A stretch of 64,000 nt of DNA. Origin: Isurus oxyrinchus. Taxonomy: Eukaryota. This document shows positions 10,666 through 64,000 of the stretch, one piece after another. The stretch is from the NCBI GenBank assembly GCA_026770705.1, contig JANJGN010000150.1:1-64000 (forward strand), written 5' to 3'. Both the position numbers and the translations under genes were made by a program. Each line of letters starts with the position of its first letter. Positions within the stretch are counted from its first letter, which is position 1. The notes beneath the pieces were generated by a model. The model saw only the letters and a program-made list of their open reading frames with translations. It ran no database searches and had not been told where the DNA came from.

Positions 10666-12057
10666 TGTCAGACTCCTTGCATTAAAATTAATACAATCCA
10701 ACTTTGCCACGCTATCTTGAGCCTTAAATGGCCAATAATTTCTATGCCTTCCAGTTTCATTTGCTCTCTCTTCTAATTTTGGCCGTGCATCTCTCTCTGT
10801 TGAACCTCCTCTCGGGATCCGATCCCCTGCCATATTAGTTTAAAGCCTCCTCAGTTGCATCAAGGGTGTAATGTCAATTGAAACCAGGGACAACATCGAA
10901 GAATGACAATCCCACAGATCAATGTGAGCAATTAAAGAAACCTCCAGACAATTTTGCCACCACAAGATCTCGATATAACAGCAGATTACCTCTACGCTTT
11001 AGAGACTCAAATATTCAACAGATCTATACACTTATATAATTGTCAAGAAATATGAAAATGATACCAGGAACCTCTTGTTCCCTGTCCTTCTCAAAGATCC
11101 ATCCCTGCAGCAGGAGCCTGAAGAGTTACTGATGTGGGGCTTAATTTATCAGATTGTAGAATGATCCGGAAATGAAGGATGCCATTTGGCCCATCGAGCC
11201 TGTGCTGGGCCTTTGAAAGATCTGTCCAATTAGTCCCACTCTAACCTCTGCTCTCTCCTCCACAGCCCTGCAAAATGTCCCCTTCAAGTATTTATCCAGT
11301 TCCCCTTCTGAAAGTTCCTGTTGAATCTGCTTCCACCGCCCTTTCAGGCAGTGAGTCAATGGTTTCTCTCTGAGCTGCAAAGTGCTAATGTTCTGAGAAC
11401 TTTAAACTCTGCAGCAGATCAGAAACAATCATGATAACTCAGAATATTTGACAGTTTTACACACGGACAGCTTTACCTTCCTTCTCTCTTTCAGTTATCT
11501 TGCTCCCTTATTGAAGTATCTAGCAAGGTGAGAATGGACAGGAAGTGTGACACTGAACAGCCTGTCTATTCTAAGAGCTGCTGTGTTGTCTTCATGGGAA
11601 ATTCTGACAAAATCAGCAAAAGACACAAAATTTCAGGGCATTGTTATCCGAGTCCCAGCATCAGGATAGACCTCATCCCCCAGTTGGTATTCCTGATTCT
11701 CTATTCAGCGGATCGCTCCCCTGTCACTGGCTGAACTACACTGACTCCCAGTCCAGCAATGACTCAAATTTCAAATTCTCATCATCGAGTTCTTACCCCA
11801 CCATCCCCCCTCTACACTCTCTATCTGTGTAACCTCCTCGAACCCTAAATCCCTCTGAGATCTCTGCACTCCTCCAATTCTGCTGTCAGACAGGGAGTCA
11901 GTGTATATCAGTGAGCACAGGGGTGATGGGTGAATGGGACTTGGTGTGAGTTTGTACACTGGCTCACTGCTGAATCGGTTCCCAATCACACTCAATAAGA
12001 ATGATCTTTTACAAAGACTATTAGCCATAAACCTGTCCGAGCTGACGACGTTATTAC

Positions 12058-12097
12058 CTTGGAGAAGTGACAGGAGGAAGTAGGATTTCCCGATCAT
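12058..12097 (-). CDS. Gene A leader (signal peptide) exon, coding part MIGKSYFLLSLLQ
   Basis: Exon 12058-12137 with tttcacag acceptor and G|gtaat phase-1 donor; joins the V exon to give MIGKSYFLLSLLQVGLS-QEW. Confidence 0.85.
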
Positions 12098-12547
12098 TGT
12101 CCACTCCCAGGTACTTCATAAGCTTCTGACTCTCAAACTGTGAAAGAGAAAGGAGTTAATGAGACCTCACCTCTTGTCCGACAGCTCTTAAGAGATCAGA
12201 ACTGTTTTTGGACAATGTCTTGACAGACTAATTTGATTCTCTGTGGGATGATAGGTGCTCTGCAGAGAGTTACAAGGCTTTAAGAAAGAAAAACATTAAA
12301 GGATTTGCATTTCTATAGCACCTTTCACCACCTCAAGACGTCCCAAAGCTCATGTCTCTGCAATTCCCTCATCCCTTGAGCTAGAAAGATGTTCTGTACA
12401 ACAGACTTGAGTCTCACACCCAGATCTCAATAATCAGTAGAAATCTTTCAAAGGCATCAATCATTGGAATCTGTCTTTATAAAGTCACAACATCAACAAA
12501 GGACGGTGTTGGTGGTGGAAGTGAATTCCAATCGTTCCGTTACTTAC

Positions 12548-12632
12548 CCAGGACCTGTCCGACTGCTCGCCTGGGGAGGAACTGCCCACACGCTCTGCTT
12601 GGGCTGAATGACCTCTTCCTGTGCTGCTCCCT
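12548..12632 (-). other. Gene A putative non-coding first exon (85-nt module)
   Basis: Strong TGG|gtaagt donor ~410 nt upstream of the leader-exon acceptor; same arrangement in all four genes. Confidence 0.65.
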
Positions 12633-15365: not shown

Positions 15366-15505
15366 TCAAACAGTCTGTCGACTTCCTTTCACTGTTTGTC
15401 TCTCCCAGACACAGACTCCAGTGATAGTGATAACCACAGCCACAAGGAATATCACAGCTCGTATTCCCAGGATCAGGATCACATGCAGAATCTCTCCTCC
15501 ACTGT
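15366..15505 (-). CDS. Gene B terminal exon: transmembrane segment with intramembrane Arg and short tail (activating type)
   Basis: ttctctag acceptor, phase 1: SGGEILHVILILGIRAVIFLVAVVITITGVCVWERQTVKGSRQTV*; Arg codon at 15459-15461; no Tyr in the tail. Confidence 0.85.
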
Positions 15506-17174
15506 CTAGAGAACACACAGAAAGAAATCATCACTGACTCTCCGCTTTCAATCTCTCACTCTGGCTGAACAATCAAGCTTCATATCACTGCAACATTTGC
15601 TGTAATATTGACCCATCCACTGGGATTCAATGTGGAATGAATGTTTTCATTGTAAACACTCTAAGAGTGGACAATCGGAACTTTCCCCTCAGCGTGGAAC
15701 ATTGGTGAGAATGGATCATTGTGCTGTTGGACTCCCTGTCCAATGTTACTCTCCATCGCTGTGTACAGGATTGTGCTGTAGAAAATTCTGGAAACGTTTA
15801 GTGCAGGGTGGAAATCCATCTCGGACGCGTGTGCGAATCGAGCAGAATCGAGATGGACTCCCCCACGGACTTACACCCCCCGCTTAATAAACAGTTCCAA
15901 TCTTTACCCAGAGAGAGGGGAGAATGTGGAACTCACTCCCACAGGGATTGGTTGAGGTGAACAGTATCGATGTATTTAAGGGGCAGGAGGGTCGGTAACC
16001 AGAGGGACACAGATTGACCAACTGGAGGGGGAGATGAGGAGAATTTGTTTTGACAGAGCGAGTTGTTGTGATCTGGAAGGTGCTGCCTGAAAGGGCGGTG
16101 GAAGCAGATTCAATAGGAACTTTCAAAAGGGAAATTGGATAAACACTTGAAGGAGGAAGATGGGGTAAAGTGGAGTGGTGGTTAGTGGATCTGATTGGAT
16201 AGAACATTGAAAGACCTGGCACAGGCACAGTGGGCTGAATGGCCTCCTCCTGTGCTGTATCATTCTCCACTTCCATGATCTCTCCCCCAGTCAGTAACCA
16301 CTCCAGATCCCTCTTGAAGGCGACAGAGAAACAGGAACTACCACACCCACTGACAGCACATTCTCAAGGATCCCTACTTTCTGGGAAAAGATGAACTCCC
16401 CAACATCCAGCCTATTCCTGCTTCCCAGAGAGTGTAAACCCTTCAGGGAGGCACTGAGGAAGTTTTCAATAAAATGAATTATCAAATCTATCATTTGAGA
16501 AATAATTTAATTCTGATGAACTCACAGCTTGTGTAGCAAACTGGGAAGTGGAGTTGCTTGAAAAGCTGGGAAACACAAGGATTAAGTGCTACAATGCCAC
16601 CACTGGTGGGAGACTGTAACTACAGCGTGACGTTTACATAGGCAGTCATCATTATAAACAGGGGCATTGGACATACTGGGAAATATGTGCACTGGAAAGG
16701 TGAGTAAATGATGTAAGATTTTCACCAGCAGGAATTCTCTAACTAAACCTCTCCACTTCTCTCTTACTCTCAGATACACAAACAAAATCACACAGAATCA
16801 GATAAGGAGGAGTTGGGGCCGGTGATTGTTCGAAGGGTTAGCTTTCAGGAAGCTTCTTAAAGGGAGAGAGAGAGTTGGAGAGGCAGAGAGTATCTGTGAG
16901 TGTCTCTATGCATCTGAGTGTCTGTAATAGACTTTGTAATTTCCATTTCTTCCATAAACATGATTGGGAACACAAATCCCAGAATCCAGGCCAACTCTCC
17001 AGTGCAGTACTCAGGTAAGCCACAGGGCAGTGTGTGCTAGTGTGTTTGTTCGTGAGTGTGTCTTTGTAATTGCTCATACATGTGTGTCTGCACGTGTCTA
17101 TTTAGTTCTGTATATTTGTGTGTGTTTGTGCAATGTTTGAATCTGCGAGAGATGTTGAAGTCTGTGTAACTCAC

Positions 17175-17947: not shown

Positions 17948-18806
17948 CTAACAGACAGAAAATGGATCCTTTTAGAGAAATATAACGTGAAGCATCAGTT
18001 CAAATAGAAACCACAGTCCCACAAGAGAAAGCACTTTTACAAGGATGATATCAGAACTGAGAGGTTACAATGATCAGGAAAGATTTTCTTGCTCTTTGGC
18101 AGTTGTGTTTCTGTCTCTCAGCTTAATACACGTTCACTCCGAGACATGTGAATTGAGAACACTGGATGAGAGAAGAGGCTCAGACCAGAGATTGGAGTTA
18201 AAAGCAGAATACTGCGGATGCTGGAAATCTGAAACAAAAACAAAAATTGCTGGAAAGACTAAGCAGGTCTGACAGTATCAGTGGGGAGGAAGACAGGGTT
18301 AACGTTTCGAGTCCGTATGACTCTTCATCAGACCAGAGGTTTGAGTTCACTGGCTTCTCATTTCCTCAGTGATCTGGGTGATTTAGCACCTTGTGGTTTG
18401 TTGGATCTTGCTGTGCACAAACTGCCTGCTGTGTTTTACATCTGTGACCACAATTCAGGAATAATTTCATTGGCTGTGAATGGATTTGGATCCTCCTGAG
18501 GTGGTAAATTGCGCTGCAGAAATGCACATCATTCTTTTATCGATACGTCAGACTTTTAAACAGGACAGGAGAGATTGATGGGAGTGGATAACCTGATAAT
18601 ACAGTTAATGCTTTTAATCATTGATATTAAAGTGAGTATTAGAGGTTGCTTTAGGACTGAACTGGAAGCTATCACCAGGTTATTGAGAATCAGACAGTGT
18701 GTTATAATAAGCTGTGTTTTGTGTTAATATGTAAACGTCACAGTTTGTGTTATTTCCCATTGAGTGTTGAATGTGAATTGTTGAGTAATTATAACACAGC
18801 ACTTAC

Positions 18807-19181
18807 CAGAAACATGAAGCTGGGTTACAGGGTAATAGTTATGGCTCGGACCATTGTCAAATTCTATTCTGAAAAAATAAGGTCCTGCATCTTCCCGTCT
18901 GATGTTGTTTATAATCAGGGAACAGTCGCCATCTTTCAGGTCTCCAGACAGCCTGGTCCGATGGTGGAATCTTTGATCCCTGTGACTGTGACCCTCGGAA
19001 TGAAAGGCTATAGACCATTTCGGCTGTGGGTTCCCATCTATTCCTTTCAAGCAGATTCCGACACGTGATCTCCCTACGAAATTTGATAAGTAACTGTAAT
19101 GACATGGAATCTGTACACACGAACCATCCTGCGCTGTCACCTCTCGTGAAGTGTCGCCTTTTCAATCTTGTGACAGTCCAA
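18807..19181 (-). pseudogene. Gene B V-set exon with nonsense codon
   Basis: 375 nt, phase 1-1; TGG>TGA at 19162-19164 (QD* versus QEW in paralogues); C-strand Trp also changed to Cys (VGICLK); YFFRIE retained. Confidence 0.85.
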
Positions 19182-19884
19182 CTATGGAGAGAAATGTCAA
19201 TATTTAACTCTGGAAGGTTTGTAGATCCACTAGACTCGATATCCACCCCCTCCATCACTGGGGCTCAGTGGCTGCAGTGTGGACCATCTACAGGACACAC
19301 AAGGAACTCCCCAAGGTTTCACAACGGATGGAAGAGAATCCTGGACACAGGAGTGGACAAGTTCATTCTACATTGGCTCATGGTGCTCAGGACCCTGTTT
19401 AGTGAAGCCAGTCTTCCACCCAACACAGAGTCTACAAGACACACAGGGAAACTGTGTAAACATCTCATCTCTCTAAACTGACTGGTTTGAGCTTCGGTTT
19501 AACTTTCAGTATTTTTAAATTTCCATATTGTGGTTGCTATGGTGAAACTGTGCAGGAAGTGTGAGGGCTGGACTCTCTGTCTATTCTGACTGCAGCTGTG
19601 ATGTGGTCGTGGTGATTCTCAGTAAAATGAAACCCTCTGATCTCCTCCATCGCTGAGGTTTAGGGAGTGAATTCCAGAGCTCAGGTCCCAGGCAGCTGAA
19701 GGCCCGGCCGCCAGTATTGGAGTGATGGGAATCGGGGGATGGTCAAGAGGCCGGAATTGGAGTAACACAGAGATCTGGGAAGTTGTTTGTGTGAGTTGCA
19801 GGAGGTTACAGAGATAAAGAGATAAGAATGATCTTTTACAAAGACTGTTAAACATAAATCTGTCCGAGCTGATGATGATATTAC

Positions 19885-20515: not shown

Positions 20516-20629
20516 CTTGGTACCAAGTGAGAAAGCAACTCTTTGCCTCGCACTGTTAGAAAACTGTTAACCCTTTGCATGCCAATAATGTGGTTGAAGG
20601 GCCATCGACTGTTCATATGCAACAAGCTC

Positions 20630-21845
20630 GAGGGTTTGAATGGGCCTCCTCCTGTTCCTGTGTAACAGGCTCGAGGGGTCTAAATGGGCCTCCTCCTGTT
20701 CCAGTGTGACATGATTGTGTGGCTGATTAAGCCTCCCCCTGTTCCTGTGTAACAGTCTTTGGCAGGGCTGAATGTGCCTCCTCCTGTTCCTGTGTAACAG
20801 GCTCCAGGTGCTGAATGCCCTCCCCCTGTCCTTGTGTAACAGGCTCGAGTGTCCGAATAGGCCTCCTCCTGTTCCTGTGTAACAGGCTCAAGAGGCTGAA
20901 TGGATCTCCTTGTTTTCCTGTGTTACAGGTTAGATGGTCTGAATGGGCCACCTCCTGTTCCTGTGTAACAGGTTCAAGGGGACAGAATGGGCCTCCTCCT
21001 GTTCCTGTGTAACAGCATCATGGGGCTGAATGGGCCTCCACCTGTTCCTATCTAACAGGCTTGAGTGGCTGAATGGGCCTCCTCCTGTTCCTGTGTAACA
21101 GGCTTGATGGGGCTAAATGGAGCCCCTAATGTTCCTGTGTAACAAGCTTGTGGAGGCTGAATGGGTCTCCTGTACCTGTGTAACAGGCTCAAGGGGACAG
21201 AATGGGCCTCCTCCTGTTCCTGTGTAACAGGCTCGAGGGAACAGAATGGGCCTCCTCCTTTTCCTGTGTAACAGGCACGAGGGACTGAATGGGTTTCCTA
21301 TTCCTGTGTAAGTGGGTTGAGAGACTGAATGTCCTCTTCCTGTTCCTGGGTAACAGGCTCGAGGAGCTGAGACTCTCTCCTGTTCCTGTGGAAGGGTGTT
21401 GAGGGACTGAATGTCCTTTTCCTGTTCCTGTATAATAGGCTCAAGAGGCTGATGGGCTTTCTCCTGTCCTCATGTAACAGGCTTGAGTGGCTGAATGGTC
21501 CTCCTCCTGTTCCTGTGTAACAGGCTTGAGGGAATGAATGGGCCTCCTCCTGTTCCTGTGTAACAAGCTCGAGGGGGCTGAATGGGCCTCCTCCTGTTCC
21601 TGTGTAACAGGCTTGAGGGAATGAATGGGCCTCCTCCTGTTCCTGTGTAACAGGTTCGAGGGGGCTGAATGGCCTCCTGCTGTTCCTGTGTAACAGGATC
21701 AAGAGGCTGAATGGGCCTCCTCCTGTTCCTGTGTAACAGGCTCGAGGGGGCTGAATGGGCCTCCTCCTGTTCCTGTGTAACAGGCTCGAGGGGCTGAATG
21801 GCCTCCTGCTGTTCCTGTGTAACAGGATCAAGAGGCTGAATGTCC
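20630..21845. repeat. ~40-bp minisatellite (gggctgaatgggcctcctcctgttcctgtgtaacaggctcga)
   Basis: Tandem copies; unit resembles the CR1 3'-tail motif; paralogous array at 38278-39405. Confidence 0.92.
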
Positions 21846-23942: not shown

Positions 23943-24453
23943 CTGTAATAGAGATGGAAATGGACAGAGTGACAATCAACATGATGTGTATTCGGTGTTG
24001 GGTTTGATTACTGGGGAGAGAGTTCCAGATTTCCACTCCCCTTTGTGTGAAGAAGTGCTTCCTGACATCACCCCTGAATGGCCTGGCTCCAATCTGAAGT
24101 TCCAGCCCCCTTGTTCTGGACTCCACCCGACCCCCACCACCCACCCCCACCCGAGGGAATAGCTTCTCTCTATCGACCCTATCGAGTGTTTAATCAGTTT
24201 GAACCCCTCAATTAGATCCCTCCTTAATCTTCTAGACCCGAGGGAATATAATCATAGACTGTGTGTAACCTGTCTGCATAATTTAACCAGAAAGATGTTC
24301 TGTACAACAGACTTGAGTCTCACACCCAGATCTCAATAATCAGTAGAAATCTTTCAAAGGCATCAATCATTGGAATCTGTCTTTATAAAGTCACAACATC
24401 AACAAAGGACGGTGTTGGTGGTGGAAATGAATTCCAATCGTTCCATTACTTAC

Positions 24454-24538
24454 CCAGGACCTGTCCGACTGCTTGCCTGGGGAGGAACTGCCCATACGCT
24501 CTGCTTGGGCTGAATGACCTCTTCCTGTGCTGCTCCCT
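24454..24538 (-). CDS. Gene C juxtamembrane cytoplasmic exon (85-nt module)
   Basis: acag acceptor and gtaagt donor; phase 2 to 0 bridges the TM exon to the phase-0 tail exons: (K)GSSTGRGHSAQAERMGSSSPGKQSDRSW. Confidence 0.72.
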
Positions 24539-24829
24539 CTGTGTATTTAATGAGAAAGGGTTGATGTGTCTCTGTGAGTCAAATCAGAAATTGGGGAACA
24601 ATTCTGAAAACCCCTTCATTGAAACGTAGGGCCTTAGTGTTGTGTTGTAAACAAACTGTTAACCCTTTGTGTCCTGACTCTGTGACGTGATTCCTGTGTA
24701 AAGTTGAGCATTTGGTGAGCGACTTTCAATTCACTGCTCACTCCAGGTGTTGAGGTGGATCTTCTGAAGGAGCAGATGTTGCTCAGCGCTCCTTAAAAAT
24801 GTCAGATACTGAACATTGTGTCAGAGGAC

Positions 24830-26713: not shown

Positions 26714-26994
26714 GTTCCACAGTGATGTTATAAATCCCTCCACTGCTCCATGTTCATTCTCTGCCACACACTGATAGTCTCCAGTGTCCCTGGATGTAAC
26801 GTGAGGAATCACCAACCACAGCTCATTGTTGGAACTTGTTCTGTTCATTGGGACATTAAGATGTCGCCACGTCAGGTTAGAAGCTGGGAAGCTCTCGACA
26901 GAGCAGATTATCACTGCAGAATTCCCCTCAATTATATTGATCGATGAAGCGTTAATCATACCAAGAGAAGTAATTGAGAGATTCTGTGGTTTGT
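26714..26994 (-). CDS. Gene C third Ig exon (C2/I-set) with a 1-bp deletion near its 3' end
   Basis: 281 nt (not a multiple of 3); DKPQNLSI..IICSVESFPASNLTW..DTGDYQCVAENEHG; ATAACATCACT versus ATAACCATCACT in the paralogue at ~56637. Confidence 0.85.
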
Positions 26995-27124
26995 CTGAAA
27001 ACAAATAAAGATCAGTTACTTACATTGACTGTGAAACACTTTGAGAGACACTGAGAATGTGAAAGGTGTGATATCAATGTAGGTTCCTTCACCACAAAGC
27101 ACTTAATTCAGGCAGACACTTCAG

Positions 27125-35438: not shown

Positions 35439-35679
35439 GTCACTTTGTGAGGATGCAGCTCATGTTTAGAGTTTTTTGAAGCTGTTAACCCTTTGCGTTC
35501 TGGACTTGTGATGATATTTCTGCTCAAAAGTGGAAAGTCATTGACCAGGAATTTCTCCTGTGGGTCATTGGGTTTCAAACCCTCTCTCGCTCTCTGAGTG
35601 AGAAGGTCGTCTGTTCGAGATTCATTTGGCAAAATTCAGACTGCCAAACCAGACCGGCACTCGGTGTCAGGACTGAGAG

Positions 35680-37965
35680 TCCTGCACTGTCAGAGGGTCA
35701 GTACTGAGGGAGTGCTGCACTGTCAGAGGGTCAGTACTGAGGGAGTGCTGCACTGTCAGAGGGTCAGTACTGAGGGACTGCTGCACTGTCAGAGGGTCAG
35801 TACTGAGGGAGTGCTGCACTGTCAGAGGGTCAGTACTGAGGGAGTGCTGCACTGTCAGAGGGTCAGTACTGAGGGAGTGCTGCACTGTCAGAGGGTCAGT
35901 ACTGAAGCAATGCTGCACTGTCAGAGGGTCAGTATTGAGGGAGTGCTGCACTGTCAGAGAGTCAGTACTGAGGGAGTGCTGCACTGTCAGAGGGTCAGTA
36001 CTGAAGAGGTGCTGCACTGTAAGAGGGTCAGTACTGAAGCAATGCTGCACTGTCAGAGGGTCAGTACTGAGGGAGTGCTACACTGTAAGAGGGTCAGTAC
36101 TGAGGGAGTGCTACACTGTAAGAGGGTCAGTACTGAAGAGGTGCTGCACTGTCAGAGGGTCAGTACTGAAGAGGTGCTGCACTGTAAGAGGGTCAGTACT
36201 GAGGGAGTGCTGCACTGTCATAGGGTCAGTACTGAGCGAGTGCTGCACTGTCAGAGGGTCAGTACTGAAGCAATGCTGCATTGTCAGAGGGTCAGTACTG
36301 AAGAGGTGCTGCACTGTAAGAGGGTCAGTACTGAGGGAGTGCTGCACTGTGGGAGGGTCAGTACTGAGGGAGTGCTGCACTGTCAGAGGGTCAGTACTGA
36401 AGCAATGCTGCACTGTCAGAGTGTCAGTACTGAGGGAGTGCTGCACTGTAAGAGGGTCAGTACTGAGGGAGTGCTGCACTGTCAGAGGGTCAGTACTGAG
36501 GGAGTGCTGCACTGTTGGAGGGTCAGTACTGAGGGAGTGCTGCACTGTCATAGGGTCAGTACTGAGCGAGTGCTGCACTGTCATAGGGTCAGTACTGAAG
36601 CAATGCTGCACTGTCAGAGGGTCAGTACTGAGGGAGTGCTGCACTGTCAGAGGGTCAGTACTGAGGGAGTGCTGCACTGTAAGAGGGTCAGTACTGAAGC
36701 AATGCTGCACTGTCAGAGGGTCAGTACTGAGGGAGTGCTGCACTGTCAGAGGGTCAGTACTGAGGGAGTGCTGCACTGTCAGAGGGTCAGTACTGAGGGA
36801 GTGCTGCACTGTCAGAGGGTCAGTACTGAGGGAGTGCTGCACTGTCAGAGGGTCAGTACTGAAGAGGTGCTGCACTGTAAGAGGGTCAGTACTGAGGGAG
36901 TGCTGCACTGTCAGAGGGTCAGTACTGAAGCAATGCTGCACTGTCAGAGTGTCAGTACTGAGGGAGTGCTGCACTGTCAGAGGGTCAGTACTGAGGGAGT
37001 GCTGCACTGTCAGAGGGTCAGTACTGAGGGAGTGCTGCACTGTCATAGGGTCAGTACTGAGCGAGTGCTGCACTGTCAGAGGGTCAGTACTGAGAGAGTG
37101 CTGCACTGTCAGAGGGTCAATGCTGAGGGAGTGCTGCACTGTGGGAGAGTCAGTACTGAGGGAGTGCTGCACTGTCGGAGGGTCAGTACTGAGGCAGAGC
37201 TGCACTGTCAGAGGGTCAGTACTGAGGGTGCTGCACTGTAAGATGGTCAGTACTGAAGCAATGCTGCACTGTCAGAGGGTCAGTACTGAGGGAGTGCTGC
37301 ACTGTCAGCGGGTCAGTACTGAGGGAGTGCTGCACTGTCAGCGGGTCAGTACTGAGGGAGTGCTGCACTGTCAGAGGGTCAGTACTGAGGGAGTGCTGCA
37401 CTGTAAGAGGGTCAGTACTGAAGCAATGCTGCACTGTCAGAGGGTCAGTACTGAGGGAGTGCTGCACTGTCAGAGGGTCAGTACTGAGGGAGTGCTGCAC
37501 TGTCAGAGGGTCAGTACTGAGGCAATGCTGCACTGTCAGAGGGTCAGTATTGAGGGAGTGATGCACTGTCATAGGGTCAGTACTGAGGGAGTGCTGAACT
37601 GTCATAGGGTCAGTACTGAGTGAGTGCTGCACTGTCAGAGGGTCAGTACTGAGAGGGTGCTGCACTGTCAGAGGGTCAATGCTGAGGGAGTGCTGCACTG
37701 TGGGAGAGTCAGTACTGAGGGAGTGCTGCACTGTCGGAGAGTCAGTACTGAGGGAGTGCTGCACTGTCAGAGAGTCAGTACTGAGTGAGTGCTGTACTAA
37801 TGGTGGGTCAGTACTGAGGGAGTGCTGCACTGCCAGAAGTTCAGTACTGAGGGAATGCTGCATTATCGGTGGGTCAGTACTGAGGGAGTGCTGCACTGTC
37901 AGAGGGTCAGTACTGAGGAAGTGTTGCACTGTCAGAGGGTCAGTACTGAGGGAGTGCTGCACTGT
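35680..37965. repeat. Large homogeneous 30-bp minisatellite (~75 units)
   Basis: Unit gagggagtgctgcactgtcagagggtcagtact with recurring variants (gaagcaatg, gaagaggtg, cataggg). Confidence 0.97.
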
Positions 37966-38140: not shown

Positions 38141-38277
38141 CTGTGTATTTAATGAGAAAGGGTGGATGTGTCACTGTGAGACAAAGTGGGAGGTGGTTGC
38201 TGTCAAAGTATGAAAGCAAACTGTTAACCCTTGGAGTGCCAAGGCTGTGTCCGAATGTGACTAACCCTTTTCCCATG

Positions 38278-39405
38278 TAACAGGCTCGAGGGGCTGAATG
38301 GCCTCCTCCTGTTCCTGTGTAATGGGATTGAGGGGGCTGAATGGGCCCCTCATGTTTATGTGTAACAGGCTCAAGGGGTTGAACGGCCTCCTCCTTTTCT
38401 TTTCTTACAAGCTCGAGAGGCTGAATTGGCCTCCTCCTGTTCCTGTGTCATAGGCTCGATGGGCTGAATGGGCCTCCTCCTGTTCCTGTGTCACAGGCTC
38501 GATGGGCTGAATGGGCCTCCTCCTGTTCCTGTGTCACAGGCTCGATGGGCTGAATGGGCCTCCTCCTGTTCCTGTGTCACAGGCTTGAGGGGGCTGAATG
38601 GGCCTCTTCCTGTTCCTGTGTTACAGGCTCACGGGGGCTGAATGGGCCTCCTCCTGTTACTGTGTAACAGGCTCAAGGGGCTGAATGGGCCTCCTCCTGT
38701 TCCTGTGTAACAGGCTCGAAGGGGCTGAGTGGGCCTCCTCCTGTTCCTGTGTAACAGGCTCGAGGGGGCTGAGTGGGCCTCCTCCTGTTGCTGTGTAACA
38801 GGCTCAAGGGGCTGAATGGGCCTCCTCCTGTTCCTGTGTAACAGGCTCAAAGGGCTGAATGGCCTCCTCCTTTCTTCTGTGTAACAGACTCGAGGCGGCT
38901 GAATGGGCCTCCTCCTGTTCCTGTGTAACAGGCTCAAGGGGCTGAATGGGCCTCCTCCTTTCTTCTGTGTAACAGACTCGATCGGCTGAATGGGCCTCCT
39001 CCTGTTCCTGTGTAACAGGCTCCAGGGGGCTGAATGGCCCTCCTCCTGTTACTGTGTAACAGGCTCAAGGGGCTGAATGGGCCTCCTCCTGTTCCTGTGT
39101 AACAGGCTCGAGGGGCTGAATGGGCCTCCTCCTTTCTTCTGTGTAACAGACTCGAGGCGGCTGAATGGGCCTCCTCCTGTTCCTGTGTAACAGGCTCAAG
39201 GGGCTGAATGGGCCTCCTCCTGTTGCTGTGTAACAGGCTCCAGGGGCTGAATGGGCCTCCTCCTGTTCCTGTGTAACAGGCTTGAGGGGCTGAATGGGCC
39301 TCCTCCTGTTCCTGTGTAACAGGCTCGAGGAGCTGAATGGGCCTCCTCCTGTTCCTGTGTAACAGGTTCAAGGGGCTGAATGGGCCTCCTCCTTTCTTCT
39401 GTGTA
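38278..39405. repeat. ~40-bp minisatellite
   Basis: Paralogue of 20630-21845. Confidence 0.92.
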
Positions 39406-40484
39406 AATGGCCAGTCCAAAGGATGTGTTTGATGCTGGGGTTAATGGCCTCCAACACAATCCTGTCCTCACATGATTAACTTAGTTAGTGACTGGTTACT
39501 GGTTAATGCAGGAGGATTATTTATTTTCCCAATCTTTTATCCATGTGTCTGGTTAGGATCTTTTCATCAAACACAGAGCAGAACCAGGATCGAGGATGTT
39601 GGTGTCTGAAATCTGTAACACATCGCACCGTCCACCCATTCACTCAGCCTTCAGGATGGAGGCTAATTGTTCTTTCAAAAACTGAAAGACTGAAATGGTT
39701 GTAAGTTGTAGCTTTAGCTCATTCTGTTGTCAAAGCTGTTTCAGCCATCCAGGATACAGTGAAAAACGTACATTTGCAAGCAACTTTTCACATCATAGCT
39801 CCCTCTGTTCACAATGACATTGGCAACATCAATGTAAACATGTCACGCTGTAATGACATCCTCCCACCAGTGCTGGCACCGTAGCACACCTGTTTTCCTC
39901 TGTGTTGTCGGAAGTCTACCAATTCCCCAATCAAATTGTTTCCCTTTCCCAGGCTGCGATTAGTCTAATATTAAACAATAACTCATAAAATACACATGTT
40001 CTCTGAACATATGTTTGACTGCAAAATGGTGAATAAATTATAGGGATTTGCTCTGGTCCAATTATCCACCGATCCTGCATTTCCTGAAGTCTACACTGGC
40101 TGATGAATATTCTGTAAACACTGGCAGACAGGAAGGTGAATAACAGAATGAAAATTAACTCTTAATCACGGACACGGGATTGAATTTGTCCGTTCTGTCC
40201 TGGTACATCATCGAACGATATCAAAAGACATTTACAATCAGATTGGAGAGAAGGATGTTTCCAACAGGGAGGGACAATTCTGAAGGAGGATGTTCAAATT
40301 GAAACCCACAGACAATCATCCTGGATAGATCATTCCAAAGAAATTCCATCAGATTGTAACAAGAGGTTTAAATCTATTTCCTGGGAGTGAGTTCCTGTGG
40401 ATATTAGGAAGGTAAATTGGAGTTTTGAATGATTCTCCCGTTCTGTATTCTCCCCACACTGTGTGTGTCTCATTCTTGCTCAGT

Positions 40485-44637: not shown

Positions 44638-44777
44638 ACTTCCTCATTTTGTCTCACAGTGACACATCAACCCTTTCTCATTAAATACACAGAGGGAGCA
44701 GCACAGGAAGAGGTCATTCAGCCCAAGCAGAGCGTGTGGGCAGTTCCTCCCCAGGCGAGCAGTCGGACAGGTCCTGG
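44638..44777 (+). promoter_or_regulatory. Gene D PU.1/ETS site and 85-nt first exon (44693-44777)
   Basis: acttcctcatttt at 44638-44650; TGG|gtaagt donor at 44778. Confidence 0.55.
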
Positions 44778-45227
44778 GTAAGTAACGGAACGATTGGAAT
44801 TCACTTCCACAACCAACACCGTCCTTTGTTGATGTTGTGACTTTATAAAGACAGATTCCAATGATCGATGCCTTTGAAAGATTTCCACTGATTATTGAGA
44901 TCTGGGTGTGAGGCTCAAGTCTGTTGTACAGAACATCTTTCTAGCTCAAGGGATGAGGGAAGTGCAGGGACATGAGCTTTGGGTCATCCTGAGAAGGTGA
45001 AAGGCGATATAGAAATGCAAGTCCTTCATTGATTTATTTTTTTAAAGCTTTTTAACTCTCTGCAGAGCACCTATCGTCCCACAGAGAACCAAATTAGTCT
45101 GTGTAGACATTGTGTAAAAGCAGTTCTGATCTCTCGAGAGCTGTCGGACAAGAGGTGAGGTCTCATTAACTCCTTTCTCTTTCACAGTTTGAGAGTGAGA
45201 AGCTAAAGGAATATCTGGGAGTGGACA

Positions 45228-45267
45228 ATGATCGGGAAATCTTACTTCCTCCTGTCACTTCTCCAAG
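45228..45267 (+). CDS. Gene D leader exon coding part MIGKSYFLLSLLQ
   Basis: Exon 45188-45267 with ttcacag acceptor and G|gtaat donor. Confidence 0.85.
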
Positions 45268-52266: not shown

Positions 52267-52632
52267 TTGGACTAACACAAGTGTGGAAAAGCGACACTCC
52301 ACAAGAGGTGACAGCGCAGGAAGGTTCTTGTGTACAGATTCCATGTCATTACGGTTATCCATCATATTTAGTAGCGAGATCACCTGTCGGAATCTGGTAT
52401 ATGAGAAGGAATTGGGAAACATTGTCTATAGCCTTTCACTCCAAGGATCACAGTCACGAGTTACCACGGTTCCACCATCGGACCCGGCTGTCTGGAGACC
52501 TGAAAGATGGTGACTGTTCCCTGATTATAGACAACATCAGACGGGAAGATGCAGGACCTTATTTTTTCAGAATAGAATTTGACAATGGTCCGAGCCATAA
52601 CTATTACCCTGAAACCCAGCTTCACGTTTCTG
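52267..52632 (+). CDS. Gene D exon: first V-set Siglec-like domain
   Basis: 366 nt, phase 1-1; VGLTQVWK..CVQIPC..GIWY..DCSL..YFFRIE. Confidence 0.9.
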
Positions 52633-53799: not shown

Positions 53800-54600
53800 G
53801 TAAGAATGTAGGAATATAAGAAATAGGGACAGGAGCAGGCCATTCGGCCCCTCGAGCCTGCTCTCACTGATCTGGTTGTGGCCTTAACTCCATTTTCCTG
53901 CCTGTCCCCCAAACCCTTGACTCCCTTGTCGATCAAAAACCTGCCTCACTCAGCCTTGAGTCTATTCAATGGCCCAGCCTCCACTGCTCTCTGGGGAAGA
54001 GAATTCCACAGGCTAGCGCCCCTCTGAGAGAGGAAATTCCTCCTCATCTCAGTCTTAAATGGGAGAGCCCTCATTCCGAAACTGTGCCCCCTGGTTCTAG
54101 ATTCCCCCACGAGGGGGAAACATCCTCCCAGCATCCACCCTGTCAAGCCCCCTCGGAATCGGATATGTTTCAATAAGGTCACCCCTCATTCTTCTAAACT
54201 CCAATGGATACAGGCCCAACCTGCTCAACATTTCCTCACAGGACAAACCCTTTAATCCCAGGAATCAGCCCAGTGAAGCTTCTCTGAACTGCCTGTACAC
54301 AATGTTCCTGTTACAATCTCACTAACGCCCTGTGCAGCTGTTGCAAGACTTCCCTCCTTTTATACTCCATCCCTTTGCAATAAAGGCCAACATTCCACTT
54401 GCCTTCCTCATTCCGTGGTGTTCCTGAATGCTGACTTTCTGTGATTCATGTACCAGGACACCCAGATCCCTCTGTACTGCATACTGCAGCCTGTCTCCAT
54501 TTAAATAATATCCTGTTTTTCTATTCTTCCTGACAATATAATTTGTTGCCATTCTCCTCAGTATTGACCATCCCCCCAATTCAGCCTCATCTGTAAATAT
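53800..54600 (-). mobile_element. 5'-truncated CR1 LINE (mirror of 3255-4095)
   Basis: Near-identical inverted copy. Confidence 0.85.
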
Positions 54601-54657
54601 CGGGTTCAGTGGATCCACAAACCATTCAGAGTTAAATATTGAGATTTCTCTCCCCAG

Positions 54658-55023
54658 CTGAACCCTCACAAGAGTGGAAAGGTGACACTCCACGAGAGGT
54701 GACAGTGCAGGAAGGTTCGTGTGTACAGATTCCATGTCATTACAGTTATCCATCATGTCTGGAAAACCAACCGCGAGGTGGAGTCTGGTTTAATAATGAG
54801 GAATGGAGAACATCGTCTATAGCCTTTCACTCCAAGGATCACAGTCACGAGTTACCACGGTTCCACCATCGGACCCGGCTGTCTGGAGACCTGAAAGATG
54901 GCGACTGTTCCCTGATTATAAACAACATCAGACGGGAAGATGCAGGACCTTATTTTTTCAGAATAGAATTTGACAATGGTCCGAGCCATAACTATTACCC
55001 TGTAACCCAGCTTCACGTTTCTG
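54658..55023 (+). CDS. Gene D exon: second V-set Siglec-like domain
   Basis: 366 nt, phase 1-1; AEPSQEWK..YPSCLE..GVWF..YFFRIE. Confidence 0.9.
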
Positions 55024-55882
55024 GTAAGTGCTGTGTTATAATTACTCAACAATTCATTTTCAACTCTCAATGGGAAATAACACAAACTGTGACGTTTACA
55101 CATTAACACAAAACACAGCTTGTTTTAACACATTGTCTGATTCTCAATAACCTGGTGATGGCTTCCAGTTTAGTCCTAAAGCAACATCTAATACTCACTT
55201 TAATATCAATGATGAAAAGCATTAACTGTATTATCAGGTTATCCACTCCCATCAATCTCTCCTGTCCTGTTTAAAAGGCTGACGTATCGATAAAAGAAAG
55301 ATGTGCATTTCTGCTGCGCAATTTACCACCTCAGGAGAATCCAAATCCCTTCACAGCCAATGAAATTATTCCTGAATTGTAGTCACAGATGTAAAACACA
55401 GCAGGCAGTTTGTGCACAGCAAGATCCAACAAACCACAAGGTGATAAATCACCCAGATCACTGAGGAAATGAGAAGCCAGTGAACTCAAACCTCTGGTCT
55501 GATGAAGAGTCATACGGACTCGAAACGTTAACCCTGTCTTCCTCTCCACTGATACTGTCAGACCTGCTGAGTCTTTCCAGCAATTTTTGTTTTGGTTTCA
55601 GATTTCCAGCATCCGCAGTATTCTGCTTTTAACTCCAATCTCTGGTCTGAGCCTCTTCTCTCATCCAGTGTTCTCAATTCACATGTCTCGGAGTGAACGT
55701 GTATTAAGCTGAGAGACAGAAACACTACTGCCAAAGAGCAAGAAAATCTTTCCTGATCATTGTAACCTCTCAGTTCTGATATCATCCTTGTAAAAGTGCT
55801 TTCTCTTGTGGGACTGTGATTTCTATTTGAACTGATGCTTCACGTTATATTTCTCTAAAAGGATCCATTCTCTGTCTGTTAG

Positions 55883-56179
55883 ATTTCACAGATAAACCCA
55901 CGATATTCCCTGCTGAAATTATTGCAGGAAAGCCTGTGGATGTAAGCTGCACCTTCAACACAACGTGCAATGGAACAGCAGCACCTGTCTTAACCTGGGA
56001 CACTCCCACTGACGTACCTGGATCAGTCTCAAACACTGTAACTCAGCATGGTGTCACTCTGACCTATACTTCTGTTCTGACCCTGATCCCATCACTCAAA
56101 CACCACGGACACACTCTCAGCTGCAGAGTGAGATATCCATCTGTTTCATCGGAGCGGACCCTCGTACTAACTGTGCAAG
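55883..56179 (+). CDS. Gene D exon: C2-set Ig domain
   Basis: 297 nt, ttag acceptor and gtaatt donor. Confidence 0.88.
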
Positions 56180-56502
56180 GTAATTACATACACCTTTCAT
56201 TCTACATCAGCACTCCCTCAGCGCTGACCCTCTGACAGTGCAGCCCGTTCTCAGTATCCACATTCTAAGGCCTCTCTAAGTGCTTCAAAGTCGATAGAAG
56301 TTAATTGATCTTTATATGATTATTGCTGAATGAAGAGACAAGCTGTCTAAACTTTACATCTCACACACACCATTCTCCATGGCAACACCTCCACCTATCA
56401 GAGACCACTTGCCAACCAATCAGCACTCTCTTCCCATTAAGTATAAATTGTTGTTCACTTTCTGTTGGTAATCCTGTGAACGGGCTTCTTGATTCCTGCC
56501 AT

Positions 56503-56655
56503 GACATCTGAATGTCCAAATGAACAGAACAAGTTCCAACAATGAGCTGTGGTTGGTGATTCCTCACATTACCTCCAGGGACACTGGAGACTATCAGTGT
56601 GTGGCAGAGAATGAACATGGAGCAGTGGATGGGTTCATAACCATCACTGTGGAAC
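56503..56655 (+). pseudogene. Gene D remnant of third Ig exon (3' half only)
   Basis: Same lesion as 17175-17327. Confidence 0.8.
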
Positions 56656-59105
56656 GTGAGTTACACAGACTTCAACATCTCTCTCAGATTTGAACACTAC
56701 ACAAACACCATCGAACATACACACCTAAATAGACACGTGCAGACACACATATATGACCACACACAAAGACACACTGACACACAAACACTAACACTCACTC
56801 CCTCATGGGTTACCTGACCTCCCTCACTACTGCACTGGAGAGTTAGCCTGAATTCTGGGATTTGTGTTCCCATTCATATTTATGGAAGAATATGGAAATT
56901 ACTATTACAGACACTCAGATGCTTAGAGGCTCTCACAGATACTCTCTGCGTCTCCAACTCTCTCTCTCCCTTTAAGAAGCTTCCTGAAACCTAACCCTTT
57001 GACGAATCACCAACCCAACTCCTCCTTATCTGATTCTGTGTGATTTTCTTTGTGTATCTGAGAGTAAGAGAGAGTTGGAGAGGTTTAGGAAGAGAATTCC
57101 TGCTGGTGAAAAGCTTACATAATGTTCTCACTATTTCCGTGCACATAATTCCCAGTATGTCCAAAGCCCCTGTTTATAATGATGACTGCCTATGTAAACG
57201 TCACGCTGTAGTTACAGCCTCTCACCAGTGGTGGCATTGTAGCCCTTAATCCTTGTGTTTCCCAGCTTTCCCAGCAACTCTACTTCCCAGTTTGCTACAC
57301 AAGCTGTGAGTTCATCAGAATTCAATTATTTCTCAAACGGTGGATTTGATGTCATGTTATTGAAAACTTCCTCAGTGCCTCCCTGAAGGGTTTACACTCT
57401 CCGGGAAGCAGGAATAGGCTGGATGTTGGGGAGTTCATCTTTTCCCAGAGAGTAGTGATCCTCGGGAATGTGCTGTCAGTGGGTGTGGTCGTTGCTGTTT
57501 CTCTGTCACCTTCAAGAGGGATCTGGAGTGGTTACTGACTGGGGGAGAGATCATGGAAGCGGAGAATGATACAGCACAGGAGGAGGCCATTCAGCCCATT
57601 GAGCCTGTGCCAGGTCTTTCAATGTTCTATCCCATCAGATCCACTAACCACCACTACACTTTGCCCCCATCTTCCTCCTTCAAGTGTTTATCCAATTTCC
57701 CTTTTGAAAGTTCTTATTGGATCTGCTTCCACCGCCCTTTCAGGCAGCACCTTCCAGATCACAACAACTCGCTCTGTCAAAACAAATTCCCCATCCAGTT
57801 CGTCAATCTGTGTCCCTCTGGTTACCGACCCTCATGCCCCTTAAATACATCGATACTGTTCACCTCAACCATTCCCTGTGGGAGCGAGTTCCACATTCTC
57901 CCCTCTCTCTGGGTAAAGATTGGAACTGTTTAGTAAGCGGGGGGTGTAAGTCCGTGGGGGAGTCCATCTCAATCCTGCCCGATTGAGCCAGTGAGCCAGT
58001 GTACAAACTCACACCAAGTCCCATTCACCCATCACCCCTGTGCTTACTGATACACACTGACCTCCTGTCTGACAGCAGAATTGGAGGAGAGCAGAGATCT
58101 CAGAGGTTTTTAGGGTTGGAGGAGGTTACAGTGATAGAGAGTGTAGAGGGGGGATGGTGGGGTAAGAAATCAATGATGAGAATTTGAAATTTGAGTCATT
58201 GCTGGACTGAGAGTTAGTGTAGGTCAGCCAGTGACAGGGCAGCGATCGGCTGAATAGAAAATCAGGGATAAAAACTGGGGGATGAGGTCTATCCTGATGT
58301 TAGGACTCGGATAACAATGACCTGAAATTTGTGTCCTTTGCTGCCTTTATTCAAAATTGCCCATGAAGACAACACAGCAGCTCCTAGAATAGACAGGCTG
58401 TTCAGTGTCACACTTCCTGTCCATTCTCACCATGCTAGATACTTCAATAAGGGAGCAAGATAACTGAAAGAGAGAGGGAAGGCAAAGCTGTCCGTGTGTA
58501 AAACTGTCAAATATTCTGAGTTATCATGATTGTTTCTGACCTGCTGCAGAGTTTAAATTTCACAGAATCTGAGCACTTTGCAGCTCAGAGAGAGACCATT
58601 GACTCACTGCCTGAAAGGGCGGTGGAAGCAGATTCAACAGGAACTTTCAGAAGGGGAACTGGATAAATACTTGAAGGGGACATTTTGCAGGGCTGTGGAG
58701 GAGAGAGCAGAGGTGAGAGTGGGACTAATTGGACAGATCTTTCAAAAGCCCAGCACAGGCTCGATGGGCCAAATGGCTTCCTTTTGTTCCCGATCATTCT
58801 ACAATCTGACAAATTAAGACCCACATCAATAACTCTTAAGGCTCCAGCTGCAGGGATGGATCTTTGAGAAGGACAGGGAACAAGAGGTTTCTGGTATCTT
58901 TTTCAATTTTATTGACAATTACATAACAGTATAGATTTGTTGAATATTTGAGTGTCTAAAGAGTAGAGGTAATCTGCACTTACGCCCAGATCTTGTGTTG
59001 GTAACCTTGTCTGGAGGTGTCTTTAAATGCTCACAGTGATCTGTGGGATTGTCATTCTTGGATGTTGTCCCTGGTTTCAATTGGCATTTTACCCTTGATG
59101 CAATT

Positions 59106-61905
59106 GGGGAGGCTTTAAACTAACATGGCAGGGGATGGGATCCAGAGAGGAGGTTCAGCAGAGGGAGATGCACAGCCAAAATTAGAAGAGAGAGCAAGTG
59201 AACCTGGAAGGCAGAGAAATTATTGGCCAGTTAAGGCACAAGATAGCGTGGCAAAGTTGGATTATATTTACTTTAATGCAAGGAGTCTGACGAATAAAGC
59301 AGATGAGTTGAGGGCACAAATAACACATGGATGTATGATGTCATTGCTGTCACAGACATGGATTAGAGAGGGGCAGGATTGGCCGCTCAATATTACAGGA
59401 TACAGGGTCTTCTGGCAAGACAGGGAAGGAGGTAAAAGAGGAGGGGGTATTGCAAGATTGATCAAGGAATCAGTTATTGCAGTGAGGAGGGAAGACACCT
59501 TAGGGGGCTCCTCAAATGAAGCCATATGGGTAGAACCTAAAAACAAATAAGGAACAATCAGCTTGCTGGGAGTGTTCTACAGGCCCAATGACACTCAGAG
59601 AAATAGAAGTGCAGATACAAAGGCAAAATTCAGAGAAGTATAAAAATAATCGGGTTGTAATGGTGGGGCTTTTCACCTTCCCCAACAATAACTGGGTTAG
59701 TCATAGTGTGATAGTTTTAGAGGGGGCAGAATTGTTAAAATGCATCCAGGAGAGATTTTTAAGCCAGTACATAGAAAATCCTACAAGAGAGGGGTCGGTC
59801 CTGGAGTAAATTTTAAGGAATGTAACCAGGCAAGTTGTAGACGTATCAGTGGGGGAGCATTGTGCAGATAGTGATCATCATTCCATTAGATTCTAGGTTG
59901 TTATGGAAAAGAACAAGGATGGGCCAGAAATCTGAGTTCTCAATTGGTGGAAGGCTGATTTTAATAAGATCAAATATGATTTGGCCAGAGTGGAACTGGG
60001 AGCAGCTACCTTTAGGGAAATCTGCGTCAGAGCAATGGGACTCATTCAGGAAGGAAGTGGGGAGAGTACAGGGCCAACATATTCCAGTAAAGGCAAAGGG
60101 TGGGACCAACAAATCCAGGGAATCCTGGATGTCGAGAGATTTACAGGATTGGATAAAGAGAAAAAGGGAGGCTTATGGCAGATACCAAGGGCTCAAAACA
60201 GTGGAAGCCTTAGAAGAGTATAGAATGTGTAGGGGGGACCTTAAAAAGAAAATTAGTAGAGCAAAAAGGGGCCATGAAGAAACATTAGCAGGAAAAATGA
60301 AGGAAAATCCAAAGTTATTTTACAAGTACATTAAGAGTAAGAGGATAACTAGGGAAAGAGTAAGGCCCATTAAGGACCATATTGGTAGTTTGTGTGTGGA
60401 ACCGGAAGATGTAGGTAGGGTTCAAAATGAACACTTTGTGTCAGTGTTCACAAGTGAGAGGGGCAATGTGGGTTTGGAAATCAGGCAGAAGGACTGTGAT
60501 ATAGTTAAAGAAATTAGAATAGAAAGGAACGAGGTTCTAAGTTGTCTGGCAGTCTCAAACGTAGATATATCTGCAGGCCCGGATGAAATGTATCTCAGGC
60601 TGTTGAGTGAGGCAAAGGAGGAGATAGCAGGGGTGCTGGCAATAATTTTCAATACATCTCTGGCCAGAGGAGAGGTACCAGAGGACTGGAGGACAGCCAA
60701 TGTGGTAGCGTTATTCAAGAAGGGAGGAAGGGATAAACCAGGGAACAACAGGTCAGTCAGTCTAACCTCAGTGGTGGGGAAACTATTGAAAGCAATTCTG
60801 AGGGACAGAATTAATCTACACTTGGAGAGGCAGGGATTAATCAAGGACAGTCAGCATGGTTTTGTTAAAGGGAGGTCATGTCTGACCAGTTTGATTGAAT
60901 TTTTTGAAGAGGTGACCAATTGTGTAGATGAGGGCAATGAATTTGACATAGTCAACTTGGACATCAGCAAGGCTTTTGATAAGGTCCAGCATGGGAGACT
61001 GTAAACGAAAGTAAGAGCACATGGGATCCAAGGGAATTTGGCAAATTGGATCCAGAATTGGCTGAGTGCCAGGAAGTAGAGGGTGATGGTCGACGGGTGT
61101 TTTTGTGACTGGATGCCTGTGTCCAGTGGGGTTCCACAGGGATCGGTGTTGGGTCCCTTGCTGTTTGTGGTATATATAAACGGTCTAAACTTGAATGTAG
61201 GAAGGTTGATCAGTGACTTCGCGGATGATATGGAAATTGATGGGGTGGTAAATAATGAAGAGGATAGCCTTAGATTACAGGGGGATATAGACGGGCTGGT
61301 CAGATGGGCTGATCAGTGCCAAATGGAATTTAACCTGGATAAGTGTGAGGTGATGCACTTGGGCAGGATAAACAAGGCACAGGAATAGACAATGAATGGT
61401 AGGACCCTGGAAAGTAACAAGGATCAGAGGGACCTTGGTGTGCATGTCCACCGTTCCCTTAAAGTAGTGGGACAGGTGGATAAGGTGGTTAAGAAGGCAT
61501 ATGGAATACTTGCCTTTATTAGCCGAGAGATAGAATATAAGAGCAGGGAGGTTATGCTGGAACTGTATAGAACACTGGTTAGGCCACAGCTAGAATATTG
61601 CGTGCAGTTCTGGAACCCACATTATAGGAAGGATGTGATTGCCCTAGAGAGGGTGCAGAGGAGATTTACCAGGATGTTGCATAGATTGAATCTGGAACTC
61701 ACTGCCTGAAAGGGTGGGAGAGGCAGAAACCCTCATAACATTTAAGAAGTATTTGGATGTGCACTTGTGATGCCATCGCATACAAGGCTTTGGGCCCAGT
61801 GCATTAATGGGATTAGAACAATTAGGTACTTGTTTGACCGACGCAGATTCGATGGGCCAAAGGGCCTTTTACTGTGCTGTGGACCCCTGTGAATCTATGA
61901 CTCTA
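59106..61905 (+). mobile_element. CR1 LINE ORF2 (endonuclease + RT), decayed
   Basis: YFNARSLTNKADEL (endonuclease), SQHGFVKGRSCLT, LDISKAFDKV, GVPQGSVLGP and FADD; CR1 tail ending ctatgactctatg. Confidence 0.93.
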
Positions 61906-62087
61906 TGGGCTGAATTTCCTGCCTGTCGGGCGGGTGGGCCTGAATATTTAAATGAGGCAGGATGATGTCAGGGTTTCCTCCTGATGTCATCCCGCATCAT
62001 CATAGTGTCGCTGAGCAGGCCCTGCCCCCTGCTCGCCAACGGGAAAATTCAGCCCGATGACTCCATGCAACAGGACTGTACAGTGAT

Positions 62088-64000
62088 TGAGGAGCGGGAA
62101 TGGATCTGATTTCTTCTTGGTTAGGCCTCACCGCTGAGCCTTTGTGTGTAATGACTCCATAGGACCCTGGTCCTGAACAGAAACCTTGGAGATGAAGTCC
62201 CGTCCTTTCACTGAGGATACCCTCCATTGTGTTGTGTGGCACTACCACCATGCTGGATGAGCAGGTTATTGTTGAGTCAATGCCTCTTAATGTCGATTAC
62301 ACCTTTGTCACTTTGCTTATGATGAAGAGTAAATTAATAAGGTGGTGATTGGCCAGGTTGGAATTGTCCCGCTGGATTGGACATATCCCTGGGCAGTTTT
62401 TCACATTGCAGGTTCAGCAGGCCCTCCCTTCGATGCGCTGTAAAGGACATTGTCCAAGAGCAGGCACAGTGGAGTGCTGAGAGTCACAGTCAAAATGTTG
62501 TAGGTGATCTCAAATCCTTGTAAGCACTCGGCCAGCCAACAGCCTGAGATGGACACACATGTGGACAGTACTGACACCTGCCAATGGGCCCCTCATTTTC
62601 TTACCTTGACAGGCTGTCCCCACTATTTCCCACTGCCAAGTTGTCGAAGAATATCGGATCACAAAGATTCCAGTATGATGCCCTGCCTGCCTTTAAAAAT
62701 GACTCCCCGGGAGATGCCTTGCTCATCCCAATAAGATCAAGTTGAATCAGGAGATCCTTCAATGATGCTTCCTCAGTTTCCGTAGCGTAGAAGCTTTCAC
62801 CGTTCCCTCTTGCAGCTGCTGGCATTTGTGTTGTGCTAAATGGACTAGATCAATTGACAGACTTGCATTGTCCAGCAGGTGTAATGTTGGAGCTCCTTTG
62901 AAACTGCCAATATTGTTGAAACTTTCTGCATATTTCAATGTTATGTCATGAATTGAGGTGATGGGGTAGTATGTGAAACTGGGACAAACATAAATCCATT
63001 GGCTTTTGGCCAGATTGGATAATCCTGGCAGTGGGTGGGGCCAGAAAATCCCACCCCTATGGGACATTTTCAGTTTATTTGATGTGCTGAGAGAGATCAT
63101 TAAGGACAACAATCCACAATTTATTGGCAAGCCACGTCAGGATATGTGTGAGAGGTGGAATATCGATCACCGCTCCTCGTCTCACCGTGCACATCATCGC
63201 CATTTCCTGGTTTGTCTGTCACCACATGTATATGTTCCTGATGGGATAGTGGATGGTCATTCTTATTGCTTGAAGGTTCCCAGTTGTGTAGGGTCTGTTT
63301 GGATCAGCGCACGGCTCTTTGTAGCTGCATCAGCCTTTGCTCTAGTGCCATGCCGCTGTCAATGGCCCTTTCTGCCACAAGCCTTGCAGGATTGGTGGAA
63401 AGCTGGGCATTTCCTTGGTGCCTGCAGAAGGCCACACCTTCCACACGTCTCACTAGGTTTGGATGTTCTAGTGAGTGTGTCAACAATTGATGTTGTACTG
63501 AGGACCTGTAAGCTTCGTTGACCTGCGAGGATTACTTCGTATTTATGTCCATCCTTGAGTAGCTCTTCAATGCTATAGGTTTTGGACTTATCTAGCAGAT
63601 CTTTCTGGAAGGCTTCCATGGGAGTGGATGCGATCACCAACTCAACAACTCTGTCTGCAGGCTCTGTGTTTGAAATCACAGTGCGTACCCTTTTCTCTAC
63701 ATTGGCTGACAAAGTGGTCTATGGATTGTGTAGGCTGATGAAATGACATAAACTCTAGTTGATGAATATGGAGTTTCACCTGATTCTGAACCTGTCTTCC
63801 AAAGTCGTCCATATCTATTGGGGATCCTTTCACTCTTCTGCTGTTAATCCTGACGTGTTCAGCCTGTGTAGACCTTCATTCCCAATCACGAGGTGAATTT
63901 TTATGGCTTGCTCGTCTGGTTCAGTCACACCTGAATCAGGAAACCAGAGCTCTGTACGCTGTTTAAACATTCTGAATTCAGATAGTCGGTCAGCTCCATC
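62088..64000 (-). mobile_element. Third copy of the intronic Gypsy-like element
   Basis: Near-identical to 9530-10660 (inverted) and homologous to 46470-49490. Confidence 0.8.

Follow-up and report, generated by a model that had tools for sequence, protein, structure and literature searches.

In the shark Isurus oxyrinchus, a deletion has fused two tandem Siglec-like genes, and the resulting join is a real, single-origin, amplified deletion-fusion that does not belong to the SIGLEC14/5 type, because it is non-homologous, adds domains and is present in multiple copies. The join was followed up in gene D of the window, the whole stretch of 64,000 nucleotides that was analysed, and its existence as it stands in the assembly is confirmed, with the switch from one parental sequence to the other at 57979-57984. 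The paired-receptor fusions described, as far as the available text of the papers covers them, keep the usual domain order, whereas in the shark the two genes are joined out of register, which would make the receptor longer and add a second sugar-binding-type head in the middle of the chain. Because the join has one origin that can be dated and 14 descendants that cover both kinds of signalling end, the system offers a test of selection against mere passage through array turnover.

The genome carries an array of Siglec-like genes with at least 620 leader-exon matches and 229 matches to the exon for an Arg-bearing TM segment (Arg-TM), and the join occurs in about 2% of array units. The array is multi-megabase in extent and spread over many contigs. 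Neither the array nor the join is described in the openly accessible literature records listed, or in the available text of PMC8455134.

Gene D and the deletion join

Gene D lies on the plus strand, and the exons that follow the join continue past the window on contig C150:

44693..44777, plus strand: 85-nt non-coding first exon of gene D, with no ATG and a GT donor
45188..45267, plus strand: leader exon of gene D, ATG at 45228, 13 codons, phase-1 donor
52267..52632, plus strand: V-set exon 1 of gene D, 366 nt, open, F-strand Arg present, 3 Cys
54658..55023, plus strand: V-set exon 2 of gene D, 366 nt, Siglec-like, Arg present, 4 Cys
55883..56179, plus strand: C2-set exon of gene D, the last full exon before the join, Pfam C2-set_2, donor AAG/GTAATT (exon/intron)
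56503..56655, plus strand: second-C2 remnant, 5'-truncated with its acceptor lost, matching only bases 146-297 of the 297-nt reference
57979..58000, plus strand: junction, CCGATT (57979-57984) followed by GAGCCAGT twice (57985-58000), with a private A at 57971
57985..64000, continuing past the window, plus strand: captured A-type post-leader intron, interrupted at about 59291-62855 by a 3.6-kb repeat insertion
C150 66772-67149, plus strand: downstream V exon, open, AG/GT ends
C150 67877-68173 and 70603-70884, plus strand: downstream C2 exons, open, AG/GT ends
C150 from 72589, plus strand: downstream Arg-TM exon, open, AG/GT ends

Near the first exon of gene D, at 44638-44648, lies a motif that we take to be ETS/PU.1-like, and a copy of the 85-nt first exon stands about 0.4 kb upstream of most leaders. 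V-set exon 2 matches Siglec-5 (E=4e-15) and the Pfam V-set and Ig_CD22 families, and the F-strand Arg of the V domain aligns with those of Siglec-5 and Siglec-8. Gene models of white shark and basking shark match the C2 exon at 93-99% identity. The repeat insertion in the captured intron is presumably LINE-like, and the first AATAAA past the C2 donor of gene D is found at 59293. No second leader was found in this intron when it was probed with the leader exon of the array itself. The reduction of the second C2 exon to its 3' half is a separate deletion scar (56503-56655 and 17175-17327) that occurs in uncut and fused units alike; a whole exon stands in place of the remnant in two of the 14 fused units.

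The uncut genes B and A serve as models of the two parents, 92-93% alike, rather than as the parents themselves:

15835..15840, minus strand: left-parent breakpoint, uncut, in gene B, reading gaatcg
15366..15505, minus strand: gene B exon for an Arg-bearing TM and a short tail, of a kind lost in the deletion
12548..12632, minus strand: gene A first exon (85 nt), of a kind lost in the deletion
12058..12137, minus strand: leader exon of gene A, the type lost in the deletion
11972..11977, minus strand: right-parent breakpoint, uncut, in the post-leader intron of gene A

The first-pass annotation had read the region at 55-58 kb as a mirror of gene B that jumps into the mirror of the post-leader intron of gene A, and self-BLAST bears this out: positions 54597-57984 are the reverse complement of 15836-19242 at 92.8% identity, and positions 57979-59291 are the reverse complement of 10667-11978 at 92.3%. 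The hexamer gaatcg is indeed present at both model breakpoints (15835-15840 and 11972-11977), and the gap of about 3.86 kb between them contains, as had been proposed, the Arg-TM exon, the 85-nt exon and the leader exon. The statement that all Ig exons are in phase 1-1 likewise stands, with lengths of 366, 366, 297, 378, 297 and 282 nt following a leader of 40 nt. In the DNA examined, the corresponding gap measures 3.8-5.2 kb in 13 of the 16 left parents with a downstream partner within 15 kb, a range that fixes no single deletion size. In the window, the V exon of gene B (18806-19187, minus strand) contains a stop, and the second C2 exon of gene C (26714-27010, minus strand) is 281 nt long and frameshifted.

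The letters at the join also agree with the earlier description of a microhomology-type deletion, since 6-7 nt are common to both parents at the break; microhomology of at least 6 nt would arise at a random join with a probability of about 0.0013. Most of the 16 uncut left parents have CCGATTC or CTGATTC before GCAC, and uncut right parents have the same heptamers before AGCAGT. Of this shared motif the join retains CCGATT alone, followed by the two copies of GAGCCAGT, which form an 8-nt duplication; where the join has the doubled GAGCCAGT, about 41 uncut right parents show CAGCAGT-GAGCCAGT or a sequence close to it. Polymerase-theta end joining leaves a scar that combines short microhomology with a small insertion copied from the flank (PMC12426944, in its accessible text), and in its microhomology the shark join resembles such a scar. 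The duplication may be a flank-copied insertion of this kind or, equally well, the result of two later point changes in a single ancestor.

Fourteen copies and a single origin

A 301-bp query has full-length matches at 14 places in the genome, and a 32-mer over the join matches exactly at the same 14 places, on eight contigs, with no matches to a reversed control pattern. Most of these joins are paralogues, since three lie on C150 and three on C52, and some near-identical ones on small contigs could be alleles; the 14 stand for at least seven loci. The A at 57971 is present in all 14 joins and in none of the 16 uncut left parents, which points to one origin. Across flanks of 1.2 kb, divergence between the copies is 0.3-5%, and its pattern is tree-like, with two main groups. 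On this sequence evidence the join likely arose once, by a single deletion, and its single origin is well supported.

Twelve of the 14 copies are 96-98% alike over a 12.6-kb V-C2-join-V block bounded by the left and the right V, but differ in their outer heads and tails. By unequal crossing-over close to V exons, this block would have been placed onto varied heads and onto two kinds of end, Arg-TM in six units and Tyr-motif tails in eight.

Among the records listed for four runs from other samples, no junction-spanning contig was found in any; two of these runs carry the same organism label and were covered whole, two are from a related one and were about half read, and gaps between contigs prove no absence. 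An uncut left-parent continuation was found in one of the four. The join may be absent from some animals.

Predicted architecture of the fused units

The cut, likely made by microhomology-mediated end joining, takes out the Arg-TM exon of the upstream gene together with the first exon and leader of the downstream gene and has phase-1 Ig exons on either side, so that two tandem genes would become one. Transcription from the upstream promoter would then run through the join, because the upstream poly(A) region appears to have been lost with the deletion, and the C2 donor would splice to the next V acceptor over an intron of 6.6-10.6 kb. The most likely product of the fused genes is accordingly predicted to be an extra-long membrane receptor in which C2 is spliced to V, a prediction to which we give an even chance.

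For gene D, the first-pass annotation had offered either a secreted product or a long chimera made with exons beyond 64 kb. Open V, C2, C2 and Arg-TM exons do follow the join on the same strand beyond the window, in line with the long chimera. Spliced in silico, gene D reads leader-V-V-C2-V-C2-C2-TM(Arg), encodes 721 aa and carries the Arg in all three V domains. The earlier claim that the cut removes the activating Arg-TM exon stands, but gene D suffers no net loss of its activating anchor, as the Arg-TM exon of the next gene ends the unit and differs from the deleted type by one residue. To judge from its predicted exons, the product of gene D would probably remain an activating receptor that couples to an adaptor and bears an Arg in each of three V domains.

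The same layout is seen throughout. In each of the 14 units a leader, V and C2 precede the join, and V exons that lack a leader, on the same strand, come after it together with a TM exon. In-silico splicing yields an open V-C2-V frame to the TM in 12 of the 14, encoding 503-723 aa when counted through the TM exon; a CT donor is used in one of the 12 and a GC donor in another, and the splice sites are exclusively GT/GC-AG in 11 of the 14. The units on C323 and C838 have a broken left half. The last TM is an Arg-TM in six units, gene D included, and uncharged in eight; in all eight it is followed by tail exons with LLYANP and TEYAQI motifs, which resemble those of white-shark models. The first V domain has the Arg in 11 of the 14 units, a Lys in two and a frameshift in one; the Lys replaces the Arg in the first V exons of the two fused units labelled L025/L024 and L026.

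Siglec cysteines typically form an intra-sheet V bond and a V-to-C2 bond. The fused units have three or four Cys per V and three per first C2, and the ectodomain Cys count is even in 11 of the 12 open frames, which would fit one closed bond within every V-C2 or V-V pair, a pairing that we infer. In the fused frame a V follows a C2, contrary to the Siglec order with V at the N-terminus, which the parent genes keep. Among 83 C2 exons in the DNA examined, none is followed by a V without either the join or an intervening leader.

A counterpart is a stingray gene model (P0001, XP_072911064, with three isoforms P0121-P0123), a prediction with tandem V-C2 repeats and direct C2-V joints. Among the 160 database proteins examined, a direct C2-V join is found in these four stingray isoforms only, and in none of the white-shark and basking-shark models. 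The models P0002, P0005 and P0035, in which a C2 or TM precedes a V, and a basking-shark cluster in which a TM stands ahead of V were discounted as merged models or models with long linkers. A basking-shark model of the P0022 cluster has seven V domains in a row.

Signs of use and competing explanations

A possible, if somewhat unlikely, alternative to a long receptor in use is that the single-origin deletion is real and the fused units are weakly expressed or irrelevant, having been carried along by large segmental duplications, with exons that stay open owing to their recent origin and to renewal through conversion by working paralogues. Several observations are in line with this passive spread. 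Dead deletion alleles have been amplified in the same blocks as the join, among them a C2-to-next-promoter deletion at five places, and copy number is for this reason not evidence of selection. One V frameshift is common to four or five copies, and six copies are merely 0.3-2.5% apart. The C2 exons of junction units have pN/pS ratios near 1 (1.08 on the left and 0.86 on the right, from 16-17 changes), with the purifying signal absent. The first V past the join (C150 66772-67149 and 11 counterparts) is far more diverse than its introns, showing 25.7 changes per 100 bases where the introns on either side show 4-11; its indels are all in frame, and either conversion, which would import such diversity, or positive selection may be responsible.

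RNA is a further point in favour of passive spread. On the V-C2 stretch past the join, the C2-to-V splice is seen among the matches listed in none of four presumed-RNA contig sets (three samples), and the V-to-C2 splice is seen in all four. Together with the runs from other samples, these sets make up seven different runs of the 24 listed. V-to-V joints are also missing among the matches listed, contigs drop rare forms, and the 14 junction units among at least 620 leaders are a rare target for such a search, so that the negative is weak.

The distribution of lesions speaks against mere passage. Leaderless right halves have lesions in 2 of 54 exons, left halves in 5 of 45 and non-junction units in 25 of 139, a count in which the intact Arg-TM exons are not scored as lesions. 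The difference between right halves and non-junction units gives a Fisher p of 0.01 raw and 0.03 after hand-merging of shared lesions, for copies that are not independent; the first leaderless V has no lesions where about 2.1 are expected (p=0.12, not significant). In addition, the block has recombined onto several different intact ends. Use of the fused units is also favoured by the state of the uncut left-parent type, of which all seven genes are broken, with lesions that are partly shared.

Extending the long-receptor reading, the V-C2-V cassette may have founded an expressed double-headed subfamily that is kept by selection, exchanges ends of the activating and inhibitory kinds and differs in copy number from shark to shark, perhaps with an independent counterpart in stingray. 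This full scenario is doubtful; if it held, it would represent a route to new receptor architecture caught in the act.

It is also conceivable, though quite improbable, that transcripts run past the C2 donor unspliced and end at an intronic poly(A) site; the product would be a soluble V-(V)-C2 decoy, and the right half would be dead. Read-through would add 18 residues before a stop, with an AATAAA about 3.1 kb downstream, and both are conserved; the donor also has a T at +5 in all 12 remnant-type units. However, the same donor is present in five uncut genes, a working leader donor likewise lacks G at +5, and the right halves show no decay.

A mis-assembly of paralogous reads at a short shared word would suit a 600-gene repeat array on unplaced contigs and the four other runs without a spanning contig among the records listed, but it is extremely improbable, as the join letters are absent from both parents and recur in 14 contexts with tree-like flank divergence.

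Comparison with known receptor fusions

The human SIGLEC14/5 fusion, which the gene D join had been said to recall, arises between highly similar 5' regions, is a single polymorphic allele and places the SIGLEC5 coding sequence under the SIGLEC14 promoter, according to the accessible text of PMC4042635 and PMC6288428. The likeness lies in a deletion between tandem Siglec genes that removes an activating end and gives the downstream gene the upstream promoter, as described in the available part of PMC4042635; eight of the 14 shark units match its outcome, with an activating-type 5' half leading to a Tyr-motif tail. Six of the 14 shark units, gene D among them, again end in Arg-TM. Whereas SIGLEC14/5 results from a crossover in long homology, the shark join connects unrelated introns through 6-7 nt, and two or three extra Ig domains are set in front of the downstream half. 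The reading as a single SIGLEC14/5-like allele is thus not supported, given the 14 paralogous copies, the non-homologous join and the added domains.

KIR fusions form in head-to-tail arrays, shuffle binding and signalling domains, and give hybrids of typical exon structure formed at shared repeats, as the accessible text of PMC7516082 and PMC2816608 describes. The shark array resembles the KIR cluster described there in being a dense head-to-tail array of paired receptors with fusion breakpoints in or near repeats, but its join is out of register, with a V exon after C2, and has itself been amplified as a movable block.

In domain composition the shark genes are like CD33-related Siglecs, MAG and sialoadhesin, with a V-set domain bearing the F-strand Arg, a C2 domain with one additional Cys, and ends of the Arg-TM or Tyr-motif kind. 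Annotated shark "Siglec-like" models share these features. Known Siglecs, to our knowledge, carry their V-set domain or domains at the N-terminus, Siglec-12 having two; the fused units differ in their internal V after C2, an arrangement found elsewhere in one stingray gene model among the proteins examined. Fusion genes as such are well known in paired-receptor arrays.

Other features of the array

A third amplified deletion places a C2 directly before the next first exon and leader, without a TM, at the five loci L041, L046, L060, L078 and L080 (contigs C121, C323, C385, C557 and C724); the upstream gene is broken in all three that were examined. Genes of the gene C type carry a copy of the 85-nt first exon between the TM and Tyr-motif tail exons (24453-24539 on the minus strand, C150 142759 and C838 66497); the upstream ETS-like motif is absent there by eye, and the copy could be an in-frame tail exon. 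The C2 exon at C150 94152-94442 has lost a canonical Cys via a 6-nt deletion. Long minisatellites with 33-bp and 43-bp units lie between genes, at 35677-37965, 38276-39406 and 20621-21842.
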